A DNA stretch of 64,000 nucleotides from Escherichia phage vB_Eco_J-01, in the sequence record PQ438393.1; one strand, written 5' to 3'. Shown piece after piece: positions 47,315-57,152 of the stretch. Numbering within the stretch: position 1 is the first letter of the stretch; each line of letters opens with the position of its first letter. Below the pieces are notes generated by a model. The model searched no databases and was not told where the DNA came from. It saw only the letters and a program-made list of their open reading frames with translations. Both the position numbers and the translations under genes were made by a program.

Positions 47315-47526
47315 AAGAGGAAAGACAAGAAAAAGGCTGTTTTTGCCAGATAGTTGCATGAAGAAATTAAAAACAAGCGGTCTAAAACACGTTGTAAGCG
47401 CCTTATGATCTTCATGGTATGGTTGTTCATCTGCTCCTTGATTAGCTCGATACCGCGATCTATTCACTTTTTTCGGTGAACGTTTTTGATAGGTAAAAGC
47501 TATCATCTTTATTGAGGTAAAAAGAA

Positions 47527-47545
47527 AGGGCGCTTTGTGCGCCCT
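47527..47545 (-). terminator. intrinsic terminator closing the - strand cassette array
   Basis: AGGGCGCTTTGTGCGCCCT; on - strand followed by TTCTTTTT. Confidence 0.65.
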
Positions 47546-47560
47546 GGTGTGAAGTGTCAT

Positions 47561-47944
47561 TTACTTATAAGCTGGATCGTTTGTTATATCAATCCAATGA
47601 GCTAAATTAATTTTATTTTTTGCTTTCATTTTCTCGATCAAACGTTCTGCTAATGTCTCGGAACGGATATAAACATAATCGCTAAAATCTTGCCCGGTTT
47701 CTTCGTCGATCATCTCGCGATATTCAATTTTCCCGATAAACGCATGATTCAGCGCATAAGTTTTACCCGTGTACCAGTTGTGTAAATGGATCTCGCATTT
47801 ATAATCGTCGCTATAACCTTCGGTTGTTCTAACTTCAACCAGATCGCCTTTAAACACTGATAAGCACCACATAGGATCACGATCTACAGCGCCGTTAAAA
47901 TCTTTACCGTTTACAGTCGCTGCCAGGTTGATGATATTGCTCAT
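47561..47944 (-). CDS. hypothetical protein
   Basis: ORF track 47561..48019; ATG 47944 after GAGGAA; the listed N-terminus would overlap the promoter. Confidence 0.5.
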   Translation of the reverse strand: MSNIINLAATVNGKDFNGAVDRDPMWCLSVFKGDLVEVRTTEGYSDDYKCEIHLHNWYTGKTYALNHAFIGKIEYREMIDEETGQDFSDYVYIRSETLAERLIEKMKAKNKINLAHWIDITNDPAYK

Positions 47945-47976
47945 GGTGATTCCTCGTTTACCGTTTAAAATGATTT

Positions 47977-48019
47977 GCCCTACGTGGTAAATAATAGTGT
48001 AAGCGTGATCCGGTGTCAA
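47977..48019 (-). promoter_or_regulatory. sigma70-like promoter with CCACGTAGG box (no GC hairpin)
   Basis: TTGACA, 17 nt spacer, TATTAT, TTACCACGTAGG. Confidence 0.5.
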
Positions 48020-48369
48020 TAGGTAGAATTGTAAAGATTTGATAGTTTATACCTTTGATGTTTTGTTGTTTAATAGGTATTAGCTATTAATATATAGCAG
48101 GATCTTCCGGTGATTATCTTCCCCTGTCCCCAGGTGCCGCCCGTTCCATAATAATAATCAAAAGCAGGATAAAAGGCAAGATAAAAAGCAAATTATTTCC
48201 TATGTGCTTTAAACGCCTTAGATAGCTTTATAACAGCTTTTTCATCCTGGTAAGGTGATTAATCATTCCTACCTTGTTTAAGCGGTTACAGTCGGTTTTA
48301 GATGGTTTTACGCCACCTTTACGCCTATTCTTTACGTGTCGCTTCCATTGTGAAAAAAGAATACAAAAA

Positions 48370-48394
48370 AGGGCGCTTAGTGCGCCCCTTTCTT
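48370..48394. terminator. terminator hairpin with flanking A and T runs
   Basis: GGGCGCTTAGTGCGCCC. Confidence 0.6.
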
Positions 48395-48404
48395 TTACCG
48401 TGTA

Positions 48405-48794
48405 TTAATATTCGTTATAATACATCGCTAACTTTTCATCAAAAGCCGATTGACGATCTGCATACTCCCAGAGCATTTCCTGATCTTGTTGTTCGTCATC
48501 GTCCATCATATTAAATTGCGCAACCTCCTGGTAAGTGATCGCCATATTATAACGATAGGTGATCTCTTCTGCGATGTTTTCCGGTAAAGATGATTCTACA
48601 CTGTCTAACAGCATATTTAACATCATTTCAGCCGCTTTTTCATCATTGTCAAAGCAGTAAGCAGACCATGCGGCATGATGTTTATTCTTCATCTTTGCAA
48701 TCAAGCCATTGACTAAAAAAGGCGCTACGTTGTTAACGATACCCTGTAAAGATTGGAATTTTTCAACGTTAGAAACAGAAACCAGGTTGCGCAT
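48405..48794 (-). CDS. hypothetical acidic protein
   Basis: ORF track 48405..48830; ATG 48794 after the cassette hairpin and AAAGG RBS. Confidence 0.5.
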   Translation of the reverse strand: MRNLVSVSNVEKFQSLQGIVNNVAPFLVNGLIAKMKNKHHAAWSAYCFDNDEKAAEMMLNMLLDSVESSLPENIAEEITYRYNMAITYQEVAQFNMMDDDEQQDQEMLWEYADRQSAFDEKLAMYYNEY

Positions 48795-48817
48795 AGTATT
48801 TACCTTTTTGATTACCT

Positions 48818-48876
48818 GGCGGGAAACCATTTCCCGCCTACGTGGTAAATAGTAACATATTGGGGATCGGTGTCAA
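48818..48876 (-). promoter_or_regulatory. PeSL-like cassette (promoter, box, GC palindrome)
   Basis: TTGACA, 16 nt, TACTAT, TTACCACGTAGG, GGCGGGAAATGGTTTCCCGCC. Confidence 0.6.
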
Positions 48877-48882
48877 TACTTT

Positions 48883-49269
48883 TTATTCAATATAAATCAA
48901 ATTATCTTCACCAATGTAAGCATGCACCGATGGCATTAATTTAGCCGCATTTGTTAGGCGGTTGGCGGTGTTAGTAGTGTATATTTCAGGGCGATCCCAA
49001 AAGCCTACGCCGTGACCGTTACGGGTGAAATGTAAGTCATTCCCGATCTGGTTTGCTGTTGCGCCGTCGCTCATTGCCTCAGAGATAGCGGCAACATTGG
49101 CACTACAAAAGGCGGTCACATCGCTGGTAATACGTTTCAGGGCGCTAGGAGAAAAATCATAATCGTCTAGATTCTCAATATATTCCCCATTGTGATCCGT
49201 CGCTGGTTCGGCAAAAATAAAGGCTTCTTTATAGCCGTTGATGATTTCCATAATGATTTCAGTTTTCAT
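48883..49269 (-). CDS. hypothetical protein
   Basis: ORF track; ATGA overlap with upstream gene. Confidence 0.5.
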   Translation of the reverse strand: MKTEIIMEIINGYKEAFIFAEPATDHNGEYIENLDDYDFSPSALKRITSDVTAFCSANVAAISEAMSDGATANQIGNDLHFTRNGHGVGFWDRPEIYTTNTANRLTNAAKLMPSVHAYIGEDNLIYIE

Positions 49270-49481
49270 GCTGTACGCTCGACAATAATAATGGTTTGCG
49301 GGATCTCGTTTTCTACTACTAACAAGGCTTTTTTCTGTGTGATAGATATTTTAACACGTTGTAAAGTAGCGGTGAAATCTTTCATTTCGTCACGTGGTGT
49401 TTTAGTGCAATGCCAGATTTCAGGTTTACCTATTTGCAAGCCGCGTAAAAATTCTGTTTTACCTGTTTTATTCGTGATCAT
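49266..49481 (-). CDS. hypothetical protein
   Basis: ORF track 49266..49499; ATG 49481 after AAGGTGA. Confidence 0.45.
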   Translation of the reverse strand: MITNKTGKTEFLRGLQIGKPEIWHCTKTPRDEMKDFTATLQRVKISITQKKALLVVENEIPQTIIIVERTA

Positions 49482-49491
49482 TTGATTCACC

Positions 49492-49596
49492 TTATCCAAT
49501 ACCGTGGGAAGATAGGATCATGTTAGCCATAGTTGCAACTACTCCAACCGATAACGCCAGGCCAACTACTACAACCGTGAAAATTTTCTCTAACAT
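49492..49596 (-). CDS. small membrane peptide, 34 aa (not in ORF track; +/-1 nt)
   Basis: ATG after GAGGG; MLEKIFTVVVVGLALSVGVV...; first gene after a cassette. Confidence 0.4.
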   Translation of the reverse strand: MLEKIFTVVVVGLALSVGVVATMANMILSSHGIG

Positions 49597-49615
49597 GATT
49601 TTACCCTCATTAGTG

Positions 49616-55828: not shown

Positions 55829-55830
55829 GA

Positions 55831-55977
55831 TTATCCTCCCCAGCGTTTAAAGCCCGTTGCACGGTTATTTTTTAACTCTCGTTTTAGTCTCTTGCAACGG
55901 TTTACAAGTGCAAACCGTGCCGGAGTCGTAACAGTAGCGCCGTTTTTGGTGTGAATACTCATTACATATTGTTTCAT
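55831..55977 (-). CDS. small basic protein, 48 aa (not in ORF track)
   Basis: ATG directly after cassette hairpin; hand-translated; stop 2 nt before next TTG start. Confidence 0.45.
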   Translation of the reverse strand: MKQYVMSIHTKNGATVTTPARFALVNRCKRLKRELKNNRATGFKRWGG

Positions 55978-55996
55978 AAAGTTTTATCCTATGTAA

Positions 55997-56049
55997 GCGG
56001 GAACTATTCCCGCTTTAAGATAGCTTATCAGGTTTTCGTGCAATGTCAA
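55997..56049 (-). promoter_or_regulatory. PeSL-like cassette
   Basis: TTGACA, 16 nt, TAAGCT, GCGGGAATAGTTCCCGC. Confidence 0.55.
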
Positions 56050-56055
56050 CCGTTT

Positions 56056-56418
56056 TTATTCGTAAATTTTACCGCTTTCTACCCATACCATAACACGGCG
56101 CATGTTATCCCATGCATCTTGTCGCAGATTTAAGGCATGCAATTCTTCCGTGGTGCTCATGCCTGGTACGGGCTTGCTGTATGTTACAAAGAGATCGCCA
56201 GCATATTCATAAGCCAGGGTAAGATCACATTGAATCATCTTTTTAATCATAGCATCAAGCATCATATTAGCGGCATGTTGATCACGTTTCAGCGGTAACG
56301 TTGCGATCTGTGTGCGATAGCTTTCGATCCGTGCATCCACTGCACCACGCGAAAGGTTTTTCACGTCATCGCGGAAAGATACCAGATTAAACATGATAGT
56401 ATTGATTTGCTTGCTCAT
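56056..56418 (-). CDS. hypothetical protein
   Basis: ORF track. Confidence 0.5.
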   Translation of the reverse strand: MSKQINTIMFNLVSFRDDVKNLSRGAVDARIESYRTQIATLPLKRDQHAANMMLDAMIKKMIQCDLTLAYEYAGDLFVTYSKPVPGMSTTEELHALNLRQDAWDNMRRVMVWVESGKIYE

Positions 56419-56440
56419 TGCATTACCCTTTCTTTGATTT

Positions 56441-56501
56441 GGCGGGAAACCATTTCCCCGCCTTATGTGGTATATATTAACAAATTATTTTTCAGTGTCA
56501 A
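56441..56501 (-). promoter_or_regulatory. PeSL-like cassette
   Basis: TTGACA, 16 nt, TAATAT, ATACCACATAAGG, GGCGGGGAAATGGTTTCCCGCC. Confidence 0.6.
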
Positions 56502-56504
56502 GCC

Positions 56505-56777
56505 TTAAAGCAAAAACGCTACATCTTGCGCTTTTAGTGTAGTGTCGATCATTTTCGGGCTTTTATAATCCACAAATCGCGCGGTTTTTTCAATAGCGAA
56601 ACCGAGATAATCTTGTTTATTGAAATTACATTCTTTTTTAAACGTTTCCCGTGCCACTGTGATCGCTGCGTCCAGGGATAAACGCCCATCAATATTGATG
56701 TTAGCGAAAGATCCGCCACCGCGCATAGGTTTACCAGTGATGCCAGCTACGATCATTGATGCGCTATATGATGCCAT
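56505..56777 (-). CDS. hypothetical protein
   Basis: ORF track. Confidence 0.5.
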   Translation of the reverse strand: MASYSASMIVAGITGKPMRGGGSFANINIDGRLSLDAAITVARETFKKECNFNKQDYLGFAIEKTARFVDYKSPKMIDTTLKAQDVAFLL

Positions 56778-56801
56778 GATTATTTCTCTCTTCTGTTATG
56801 A

Positions 56802-56857
56802 GCGGCACTATTGCCGCCCTATGTGATAAACTTTACCAGAATAAAAAACGTTGTCAA
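56802..56857 (-). promoter_or_regulatory. PeSL-like cassette with variant hairpin
   Basis: TTGACA, 16 nt, TAAAGT, TTATCACATAGG, GCGGCA-ATAG-TGCCGC. Confidence 0.55.
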
Positions 56858-56865
56858 GAATATTT

Positions 56866-56961
56866 TTAGAAAATAACAACCGCCACTACAATCCAAAATG
56901 GAACGGCTAGAATGATAGCGTTAATCGTTCCAACCGTCAAGCTGTTTTCTTTCTTGATCAT
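56866..56961 (-). CDS. small membrane peptide, 31 aa (not in ORF track)
   Basis: ATG after AAAAGG; MIKKENSLTVGTINAIILAVPFWIVVAVVIF. Confidence 0.4.
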   Translation of the reverse strand: MIKKENSLTVGTINAIILAVPFWIVVAVVIF

Positions 56962-57088
56962 CGTTATCAACCTTTTATAAGTAATGTTATTGTGACGGTG
57001 GATTGTGGAGATCCTCACCTTTGCCCGTCCTACATTGCGCCCTCCTTTTGTTTATTGTCGTTGTGCCTCGCCCCCCTCGACAAGATGA

Positions 57089-57117
57089 ATAATACGCTAC
57101 CAGGTGAGGAACGTCAA
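57089..57117 (-). promoter_or_regulatory. sigma70-like promoter heading the - strand array
   Basis: TTGACG, 17 nt, TATTAT. Confidence 0.45.
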
Positions 57118-57152
57118 CCATTTTTTTAATCTTTTTTCATTTCTTTTTTTGC

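Follow-up and report, generated by a model that had tools for sequence, protein, structure and literature searches.

Recurrent promoter-plus-hairpin cassettes head small genes near the right end of a phi92-like coliphage genome

Why would one tiny phage gene after another carry a promoter of its own, followed closely by a GC-rich hairpin, and what would that hairpin do? The question is raised by the minus strand of positions 47520-57120 in a 64,000-nt stretch of Escherichia phage vB_Eco_J-01 (PQ438393.1), which was analyzed as a whole and is referred to here as the window. An original prediction, made from the sequence alone, described at least twelve minus-strand genes in this array as preceded by the same module, comprising a TTGACA promoter, a conserved box, a palindrome and a ribosome-binding site (RBS), and equated these modules with PeSLs, the early-promoter and stem-loop elements of T4-type phages. 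On balance, we favor by a modest degree an explanation in which the region is a hyperplastic early-gene block at the right end of a phi92-like genome, made of portable expression cassettes.

Megablast with positions 47520-57120 matched 287 phage records. The closest was Escherichia phage Paula, with 96.6% identity over 100% of the query, and the next matches were other genomes of Justusliebigvirus (phi92-like, Stephanstirmvirinae). Judged by these matches, the source phage is a Justusliebigvirus within Stephanstirmvirinae and not a T4-type phage, so the T4-type setting suggested by the original comparison needs correction. The 343-bp terminal repeat of phi92 maps to 46096-46438 of the window. 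The array forms the final ~11 kb ahead of the right genome end, with transcription running towards that end, and consists of a ~9-kb run of ~28 tiny genes with minus-strand promoters between 47.9 and 57.1 kb. Pfam and PHROGs searches with ten cargo proteins returned only PHROGs of unknown function, except for one gp30.8-like and one DUF7249 protein, and gave no functional lead other than these two.

A promoter consensus scan over 47400-57300, with a cut-off of at least 10 of 12 positions, identified 20 sites, 19 on the minus strand and one on the plus strand, and a separate regular-expression scan agreed. TTGACA is perfect at 17 of the 19 gene-strand sites. The cassette promoters have A/T-rich tracts upstream, and their -10 elements are often extended (Table 1). 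The -35 element, which had been described as often starting within 3 nt of the upstream stop codon, lies 0-8 nt from it by direct reading, and the TGA of the gene ending at 49673 falls within TTGACA itself. The observation is real, and most of what was described was recovered. The claim that the module heads almost every small gene held in part: the module is recurrent, but ~19 of the ~28 genes come with a promoter of their own, and no more than 12-13 with the complete module. At seven promoters (55008, 54932, 54668, 52088, 51623, 51011 and 48019) the hairpin is absent, weak or degenerate.

Leaders were folded from 8 nt past the -10 end to the ATG. The 12 promoter-linked leaders and one promoter-less hairpin (49988-49968) gave minimum free energies (MFEs) of -11.5 to -19.3 kcal/mol with z-scores of -2.5 to -5.3, the range for the 12 promoter-linked hairpins alone being -11.5 to -18.7 kcal/mol. 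In a full cassette, the -10 is followed after 6-13 nt by the GC hairpin, an unpaired A-rich spacer, the RBS and the ATG. The RBS is unpaired, and the hairpins begin 0-5 nt from the predicted transcription start (+1), which we placed by analogy with the T7 promoters A1 and A3.

A census of GC hairpins in the window distinguishes two types. Leader-type hairpins stand 6-13 nt past a -10 in 12 of 12 cases and have no flanking A/T tracts. Terminator-type hairpins, which combine an A-tract, a GC stem with a tetraloop and a T-tract, are spread over the window and occur within the array at 52327, 48393 and 47545. None of the cassette hairpins is followed by a U-tract on the gene strand, where their tails are A-rich (AAATCAAAG, ATCAATAAAG), and none scores as a terminator there; the defining combination of an intrinsic terminator, a GC stem-loop with an immediate U-tract on the transcribed strand, is absent from them. 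On the minus strand, terminator-like sites coincide with cassette-type or canonical hairpins only at 48393 and 47545, neither of which is a cassette hairpin. Leader folding, terminator scan and hairpin census support the view, already put forward in the original prediction, that the cassette hairpins are leader elements without a U-tract and not canonical terminators.

The palindrome GGCGGGAAACCATTTCCCGCC (plus-strand reading) is found exactly at 48818, 52864 and 53744, and with up to three mismatches at five sites, compared with 0 expected. The remaining hairpins have other stems (GGGCGGCA/TGCCGCTC, GCGGGAA/TTCCCGC, GGCGGTGG/CCACCGCC, GCGGGGAAA/TTTCCCCGC and GGGCG..CGCCC). The box and palindrome originally quoted are present, but in exact form only in a minority of copies, the palindrome at these three sites. 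A covariance model built on the box and hairpin recovered 13 elements at E<0.1 and one degenerate element at E 0.31, all on the minus strand between 48.8 and 56.8 kb; elsewhere in the 64-kb window it had no match apart from two reverse-strand shadows.

The box itself reads TTATCACATAGG at 56857, 53803 and 50248, TTACCACGTAGG at 48876 and 48019, and GTACCACGTAGG at 49676, with variants in the other cassettes. In the T7 record, the starts of A1 and A3 are annotated 7 nt past the -10 (A1, GATACT-TACAGCC/ATCGAGAGGG; A3, TACGAT-GTACCAC/ATGAAACG; the slash marks the start). The matching cassette strings are TAAAGT-GTACCAC/GTAGGGCGG, TAATAT-ATACCAC/ATAAGGCGG and TATAAT-ACTTAT/ATCGAGAGCGGG, with GTACCAC/GTAGGG, ATACCAC/ATAAGG and TATAAT-ACTTATATCGAGAGCGGG among the start strings as well. 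Because the discriminator and initial strings are the same as those of T7 A1 and A3, the conserved box is best read as a discriminator plus the first transcribed bases. On this analogy, the hairpin would begin within the first six transcribed nucleotides (+1 to ~+6) of the cassette's own mRNA. In the proposed plan, an A/T-rich upstream tract containing the stop codon of the previous gene would lead into a near-consensus sigma-70 promoter and a 7-nt discriminator ending in CAC or TAC; transcription would start at A or G (ATAGG, GTAGG or ATCGAGAG), and a GC hairpin of ~7-10 bp, an unstructured A-rich spacer, an RBS and often ATGGCT would follow. Many cassette genes open with ATGGCTA (Met-Ala), including those at 54867, 54592, 54138, 53721 and 53406, so the conserved unit reaches into the first codons.

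The hairpin varies in sequence while keeping its form. Counting the window together with 14 related loci, the same promoter-proximal position is occupied by at least 15 distinct stems, for example GGGCGGCA, GCGGGAA, GGTGGGGAA, GGCGGTGG, GGGGAGAA, AGGGGGA and GGGGCG. An alignment of the cassette copies, proposed as a check with the original prediction, was made with the covariance model across 14 sources and yielded 127 hits, 90 of them distinct and all on the gene strand. It replaced a single-register consensus on a MAFFT alignment, which proved unsuitable, since loop lengths of 3, 4 or 5 nt move the pairing out of register. Changes on both sides of a pair occur at 4 of 7 model pairs, in 91 cells compared with 33.8 in shuffles (0 of 500 shuffles reach 91), and the covariation score of the model-based alignment of the 127 hits is 0.300 versus 0.147. 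Folding is better on the sense than on the antisense strand in 64 versus 27 cases, or 56 versus 41 with a symmetric finder, and G-U pairs outnumber A-C by 39 to 13; these counts modestly support a role of the gene-strand RNA. Of the 90 distinct copies, 60 keep the loop apex AAU(A/G)G, across many unrelated stems, and CAC, CTC, GTA and AAC are also seen as loops. Promoters and hairpins are present far more often than expected by chance, the structure is maintained through differing stem sequences, and the hairpin keeps a fixed position relative to the -10.

To relate the cassettes to genome plasticity, we aligned the array with 11 relatives (Paula, phi92, phAPEC8, inny, Eryne, AMO3598, PD211, ECML-183-2, anhysbys, muut and cardinal). 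Cassettes make up 20% of the region and contain 35 of the 48 distinct homology breakpoints (P=4e-15 versus uniform). Three clean indels have the cassette-gene-cassette form (the Paula gp243 module, the inny_203 module and a deletion in muut), with junctions in the UP/-35 part, the -10 and the RBS/ATG. Paula, Eryne, muut and AMO3598 have an extra phi92 gp243-like gene between two cassette copies where the window has one cassette, with the crossover in AAAAAATAGTTTGACA, within the UP/-35 part. At 54199-54129, inny has an extra 183-bp gene that is likewise set between cassettes. In muut, the gene 53406-53191 is missing and its flanking cassettes are fused at AGTAAA in the -10, while phi92 lacks the gene 54867-54688, with the common ATGGCTA start as the junction. 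Homology to 9 of the 11 relatives ends at 47977-47993, where the relatives that we inspected have an additional hairpin cassette and a phi92 gp247-like gene, both absent from the window. The cassettes are paralogous to each other, with 75-84% identity over 80-95 nt. The original prediction had staked itself on the cassettes recurring in related phages; they do, with indel and replacement junctions inside them, and by these alignments the cassettes coincide with junctions of gene gain, loss and replacement.

The adjoining block at 35800-45400 contains ~40 small genes on the minus strand, in the same orientation and tightly packed in an operon-like manner. Promoters are scarce there, hairpins of the cassette type are absent, and conservation within the genus is much better than that of the array. 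The block is thus an internal control, provided by the genome itself, for how cassettes relate to plasticity. At a coverage of at least 80%, 12 records match the array and 53 match this block of equal size (35.8-45.4 kb), whereas the records matched in all number 287 and 77, respectively. Compared with this block, the array is therefore more of a mosaic inside the genus and also has a wider distribution beyond it.

Outside the genus, this architecture recurs, built on different stems, in Phapecoctavirus phAPEC8, in Vequintavirus pangalan and the rV5-like phage WM, and in the jumbo Asteriusvirus phages G17 and 121Q, which have the -35 TTGCAA, the box ATCGAGAG and stems including GTGGGGAA/TTCCCCAC and GGGAGAA/TTCTCCC. 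The DUF7249 gene 54138-53899 and its cassette are 75-80% identical in jumbo phages. In pangalan, identity is 91% for the genes at 49596-49266 with their cassette and 94% for the gene 54867-54688, which there stands behind a different hairpin-bearing cassette, with homology beginning 12 nt before the ATG. By sequence comparison, then, the same type of cassette heads both homologous and non-homologous cargo in three other phage lineages. Existing records name these elements differently: the hairpin 20-mer GTAGGGCGGCAATGGTGCCG of phAPEC8 is annotated as a 'PHIRE promoter', and the Paula and ASO2A records annotate the cassette hairpins as terminators, which Paula places on the opposite strand, where no T-run follows either. 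As far as sequence can tell, all these labels denote the same physical elements, which lie downstream of a host-type promoter and lack a U-tract. A pattern scan of IMG/VR with ACATAGGGCGG-N8-11-CCGC returned at least 120 stretches, and the covariance model found real cassettes at only 4 of 80 loci tested; all four were on phi92/phAPEC8-like contigs, the rest were chance matches, and no new lineages emerged. Whole-cassette blastn against 5,426 complete E. coli genomes found no match, which leaves a host or prophage origin of the cassette unsupported. Some database matches come from unexpected hosts. The 39.7-kb record MT119359.1 (Enterococcus phage heks) has an 84% match to a coliphage cassette at 545-624, near its end, and several records labeled as 'Campylobacter phages', namely B15, A145, C2 and A142 (MG065650, MG065645, MG065655 and MG065662), are 140-150-kb coliphage-type genomes; these records look like database contamination or mislabeling.

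Among known systems, PeSLs offer the closest comparison. They were described in the T4-like phages RB49/phi1, T4/PST and KVP40/nt-1 (Arbiol et al. 2010, PMC2839356; Comeau et al. 2014, PMC4122927) as a sigma-70 early promoter that has an AT-rich region upstream and is combined with a stem-loop, for which five positions are distinguished (PMC2839356, PMC4122927), most commonly between -35 and -10 or over the -10 (PMC2839356). They cluster ahead of ORFans in hyperplastic regions and bound indels (PMC2839356, PMC4122927), and the RB49/phi1 stem-loops lowered lacZ expression like a strong terminator (PMC2839356). The present cassettes share with them a near-consensus sigma-70 early promoter, an AT-rich upstream tract containing the previous stop codon, a G(n)-loop-C(n) stem-loop, and a conserved leader with the Shine-Dalgarno sequence and start at its 3' end. 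In both systems there is one cassette per ORFan, intergenic and grouped in a hyperplastic region; cassettes bound indels or replacements between close relatives, and the crossover lies in the AT-rich/-35 part, as in the Paula module here and in Fig. 3 of PMC2839356. They differ in lineage, being found here in Stephanstirmvirinae instead of Straboviridae and in a type common to several unrelated coliphage lineages, and in geometry. Our reading of the RB49 cassettes ahead of ORFs 185, 186, 191, 198, 205 and 210 places the stem-loop in the spacer or over the -10 (for example, TTGACA-GGGGGTCACCGATCCCC-TATAAT), outside the cassette's own transcript, whereas here it lies 6-13 nt past the -10, in the first ~30 nt of the transcript, resembling only the rare 'downstream of -10' class of PMC2839356. 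Cassette blastn returned no T4-like phages, and the RB49 PeSL sequences are unrelated to the present ones. The proposed match with PeSLs therefore survives for the promoter, the GC stem-loop, the intergenic position ahead of ORFans, the plastic region and the junctions within cassettes, but not for the phage group, the sequence or the hairpin position. We regard the cassettes as PeSL-like elements outside the described T4-phage sets, with a different geometry and probably a different hairpin function. In the searchable literature, PeSLs were reported only for T4-like phages, and we found no description of such cassettes for phi92, rV5, Stephanstirmvirinae, Vequintavirinae or Asteriusvirus; in the rV5 genome paper, sigma-70 promoters and terminators appear as separate lists, and a composite cassette is not mentioned. 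Outside the array, hairpins 0-24 nt past a sigma-70-like -10 are also found at plus-strand genes of the window (6807-6830, 10341-10360, 12551-12569, 24216-24235 and 32125-32145), but of other kinds: those at 24216 and 32125 are terminator-type stems (A-tract, GC stem, T-tract) directly downstream of the promoter, and the one at 6807 abuts the -10. This layout is closer to that of the RB49-style composite promoter/terminator elements.

Three other systems resemble parts of the cassette. The 5'-terminal stem-loops of ompA and papA stabilize their messages (Emory, Bouvet and Belasco 1992, as reviewed in PMC3997798), and this is explained by the requirement of both RppH and RNase E for single-stranded 5' termini (PMC3997798). 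Like them, the cassette hairpin is predicted to be a stable structure a few nucleotides from the 5' end and upstream of an accessible RBS; unlike them, it is present in ~12 copies in one phage region, is mobile and has a conserved loop apex, and its 3-5 unpaired nucleotides are perhaps too many for full protection. The T7 promoters A1 and A3 have a nearly identical discriminator and initial transcribed sequence and are likewise clustered near a genome end, but in T7 three tandem promoters feed one long early transcript processed by RNase III, whereas here each small gene has one promoter and a 5' hairpin. The nut site of lambda (boxA and boxB) also sets a conserved linear box beside a short hairpin, whose purine-rich loop is semi-conserved, and lies shortly past early promoters. 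It differs in occurring in 2 copies against ~12 here, and the stems here are variable and rich in GC. An N-like protein was not identified, although no search for an N-like gene was made, and with a promoter for every gene it is not obvious what antitermination would add.

These comparisons lead us to lean, with limited confidence, towards portable early-expression cassettes in which the 5' hairpin most likely stabilizes the mRNA and the conserved motifs are recombination junctions, the latter part being supported by the comparison of relatives. Host RNA polymerase would fire each promoter immediately upon infection and produce a large number of early transcripts that are short and partly nested. 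At the very 5' end, the hairpin would most likely block 5'-end-dependent decay by RppH and RNase E and leave the RBS open; in read-through transcripts, it could leave a protected 5' end after upstream cleavage. The sub-motifs (UP/-35, -10/box and RBS/ATGGCTA) would provide microhomologies for the recombination events that insert, delete or exchange modules of one gene, each bringing its own expression signals.

Several observations weigh against this explanation. The +1 is placed by T7 analogy, and 3-5 unpaired 5' nucleotides could limit the hairpin to partial protection from RppH and RNase E. In the same array, seven promoters lack a full hairpin, and the hairpin 49988-49968 has no promoter, so the role of the hairpin cannot strictly depend on a 5'-terminal position. 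The apex AAU(A/G)G is conserved over unrelated stems, and a pure stability element would not need it. The covariation alignment was fitted to the model, its copies are related to each other, and a control slid by -1 scores 0.243 against 0.300, which is nearly as high because of register ambiguity or slippage in the G/C runs. As for recombination, the junction microhomologies are short (6-17 nt). When only non-coding positions are considered, cassettes hold 35 of 41 breakpoints against an expected 72%, which is a marginal enrichment (P=0.035); much of the overall enrichment is therefore simply intergenic and is explained by selection against breakage within genes.

The leader position of the hairpin poses a clear question, namely whether it acts as an mRNA stabilizer, an attenuator or a protein-binding site. 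The original PeSL reading and the database annotations would make the hairpins terminators or attenuators of upstream transcripts, which insulate each unit against cumulative read-through. We consider this rather unlikely, even though the lacZ results with RB49/phi1, the terminator labels in the Paula and ASO2A records, the GC-rich, stable stems and the promoter-less hairpin between two genes all speak for it. The A-rich tails stand in place of a U-tract after every cassette hairpin on the gene strand, Paula's opposite-strand annotation fares no better, and the canonical terminators at 52327, 48393 and 47545 are of another design (A-tract, GGGCGC stem and T-tract). Moreover, the hairpin position is fixed to the -10 and +1 and not to the upstream stop codon, and efficient termination would abort the cassette's own transcript at ~+25. 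Alternatively, box and hairpin could form a recognition site on nascent early mRNA for a trans-acting factor, with hairpin stability being secondary; a phage RNA-binding regulator, a nuclease for early-message shut-off or processing, nut/boxB-like antitermination or a host factor would be candidates, and for all of these together we see a small but appreciable chance. Such a site would account for the apex AAU(A/G)G on at least 15 stems in three phage lineages, for a conserved box adjoining the hairpin as in boxA/boxB, for the strict position just past early promoters and only on early-type units, and for the retention of the element even without a promoter. On the other hand, no candidate binding protein was identified and the neighboring genes are all of unknown function; the loops vary, apex conservation can reflect common descent of paralogous copies, and a promoter at nearly every gene makes antitermination not obviously needed.

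Two further explanations deny the RNA hairpin a role of its own. In one, the palindrome acts on DNA, either as the operator of a dimeric repressor at ~+1 to +25 or as a cruciform or single-stranded hairpin that targets recombination or nicking. Perfect dyad symmetry, an overlap with the early transcribed region that is typical of roadblock repressors, and recombination junctions clustered in cassettes point in this direction, but at least five unrelated half-sites in one genome, kept symmetric by compensatory change, fit a structure and not one DNA-binding protein. Tolerance of G-U over A-C and the more stable sense strand argue for RNA, and the mapped junctions lie in UP/-35, -10 and RBS/ATG, not in the palindrome; we judge a DNA-level role to be improbable. 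An operator for a single repressor was rejected, as the stems differ within one genome. In the other explanation, the similarity is a by-product of serial duplication of one promoter-leader unit, and the hairpin has no function of its own. The paralogy of the cassettes and the decay of several copies (55008, 54668 and 48019) would be expected from such a history, whereas the structure kept through changes on both sides, the strict geometry, the conservation across genera and families at 75-93% cargo identity and the lack of anything similar in the 5,426 complete E. coli genomes make it the least probable of those considered, with hardly any weight. RNase III sites need stems longer than 7-10 bp, and the cassette hairpins are too short to be such sites. 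The NAD-capping promoter consensus was considered as well and is not matched at -1.

The stabilizing, portable cassette remains our preferred explanation, and a bolder extension of it, which we hold to be possible but unlikely, is that the cassette is a pan-coliphage adaptor that crosses lineages, its apex AAU(A/G)G being read by a shared trans-acting factor of host or phage and its sub-motifs enabling trade in ORFans. If so, Stephanstirmvirinae, Vequintavirinae and jumbo Asteriusvirus would exchange ORFan genes one by one, with immediate expression in the recipient genome, and the cassette would be a common currency of horizontal gene flow among large lytic coliphages. PeSLs are the proposed engine of plasticity in T4-like genomes; an analogous, differently built cassette in phi92-, phAPEC8-, rV5- and 121Q-like phages suggests that promoter-plus-hairpin adaptors are a general way, convergent or transferable, to shuffle accessory genes in large virulent phages. 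This general view is supported by the homology junctions inside cassettes and by cargo moving between families. The analysis also corrects the database annotation of elements now labeled 'terminators' or 'phage-specific promoters'. As predicted compact, strong and self-contained expression units, the cassettes may be of use as parts for synthetic biology and as engineering entry points for therapeutic phages.

Table 1. Features of the array, in window coordinates (MFE in kcal/mol; E, covariance-model E-value)
Feature	Span	Strand	Signals and hairpin	MFE, z, E	Gene headed and remarks
Full cassette	56857-56778	-	-35 56857-56852; -10 56835-56830 (TGg-TAAAGT); box TTATCACATAGG; hairpin 56819-56800; RBS	MFE -14.4, z -4.6	90-aa gene 56777-56505
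Full cassette	56501-56419	-	-35 56501; -10 end 56474; box ATACCACATAAGG; hairpin 56462-56441	MFE -15.6, E 2.8e-8	120-aa gene 56418-56056
Permuted cassette	56049-55978	-	hairpin 56015-55995, 6 nt past -10; ACATAGG box after hairpin	MFE -11.5, E 0.08	48-aa gene 55977-55831
Degenerate cassette	55008-54933	-	promoter and box; decayed hairpin	MFE -6.6, z -1.4, E 0.31	no own gene; tandem with promoter 54932
Promoter without hairpin	54932-54868	-	perfect consensus TTGACA-16-TATAAT		59-aa gene 54867-54688
Promoter with decayed hairpin remnant	54668-54593	-	TTGACA-17-CATAAT	MFE -5.3	121-aa gene 54592-54227
Full cassette	54220-54139	-	consensus promoter; box ATCGAGAG (as at T7 A1 start); hairpin 54179-54163	MFE -15.3	79-aa DUF7249 gene 54138-53899; cassette and gene common to jumbo Asteriusvirus phages
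Full cassette	53803-53722	-	hairpin 53764-53744, exact palindrome	MFE -15.4, E 3e-8	75-aa gene 53721-53494
Full cassette	53485-53407	-	hairpin 53447-53428	MFE -15.8	71-aa gene 53406-53191
Full cassette	53184-53101	-	-35 variant TTGCAA, -10 TAAACT (Asteriusvirus-like); hairpin 53146-53123	MFE -18.7, z -5.3	56-aa gene 53100-52930
Full cassette without CACATAGG box	52922-52844	-	hairpin 52884-52864, exact palindrome	MFE -15.5	119-aa gene 52843-52484
Terminator-like hairpin inside array	52327-52303	-	A-tract/GC-stem/T-tract		only plus strand passed terminator scan; probably genuine
Promoter only, no hairpin	52088-52022	-			133-aa gene 52021-51620
Promoter only, 15-nt leader	51623-51573	-			100-aa gene 51572-51270
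Promoter with small weak hairpin	51011-50941	-	CGGC-AAAG-GCCG 50971-50960	MFE -6.0, z -2.0	107-aa gene 50940-50617
Full cassette	50616-50535	-	hairpin 50575-50555	MFE -15.6	94-aa gene 50534-50250
Full cassette	50248-50167	-	hairpin 50209-50187	MFE -15.8, z -4.8	56-aa gene 50166-49996
Hairpin-only element, no promoter	49999-49949	-	hairpin 49988-49968, between two genes	MFE -19.3, z -4.6, E 0.0014	precedes 91-aa gene 49948-49673
Full cassette	49676-49597	-	box GTACCACGTAGG; interrupted hairpin 49638-49615	MFE -15.1	cassette common to Vequintavirus; junction site of Paula/Eryne/muut extra-gene module
Full cassette	48876-48795	-	hairpin 48838-48818, exact palindrome	MFE -15.5	129-aa gene 48794-48405
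Genuine intrinsic terminator	48393-48365	-	GC stem and T-run		
Promoter and box, hairpin missing	48019-47945	-	box TTACCACGTAGG		gp30.8-like gene 47944-47561
Genuine intrinsic terminator closing array	47545-47527	-			~1.1 kb before terminal-repeat homologue 46096-46438

Some smaller features lie within or beside the array. A 26-codon mini-open reading frame (ORF) at 53885-53805 has a good RBS (AAAGGAG) and is without annotation in the Paula record; it lies on an 87-nt segment that phi92 and several further relatives lack. No convincing ORF is present in two stretches: ~350 bp at 48020-48365, from the terminator 48393-48365 to the cassette at 48019, where several relatives lose homology at 48169 or 48174, and ~1.7 kb at 45800-47527, from the last terminator of the array to the left-end genes, which includes the terminal-repeat homologue.

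Both flanks of the promoter array also carry sites resembling the E. coli Fur box (GATAATGATAATCATTATC, up to three mismatches), with five matches at four positions compared with 0.04 expected (46347-46365, 47240-47258, 57778-57796 and 57831-57849). One of them lies within the terminal-repeat homologue, and nested repeats occupy 57752-57869. AATGAGAATGATTATCA is present in four copies, together with several nested inverted repeats. The Fur-box-like sites could belong to host Fur or form an operator for a phage regulator. The ~1.2-kb non-coding stretch immediately upstream of the array contains three iteron-like direct repeats of 63-68 nt (57889-58094), each with TTGAACTTTTCATTTT, and the inny and muut records have repeat regions annotated upstream of their arrays at about the same relative position.

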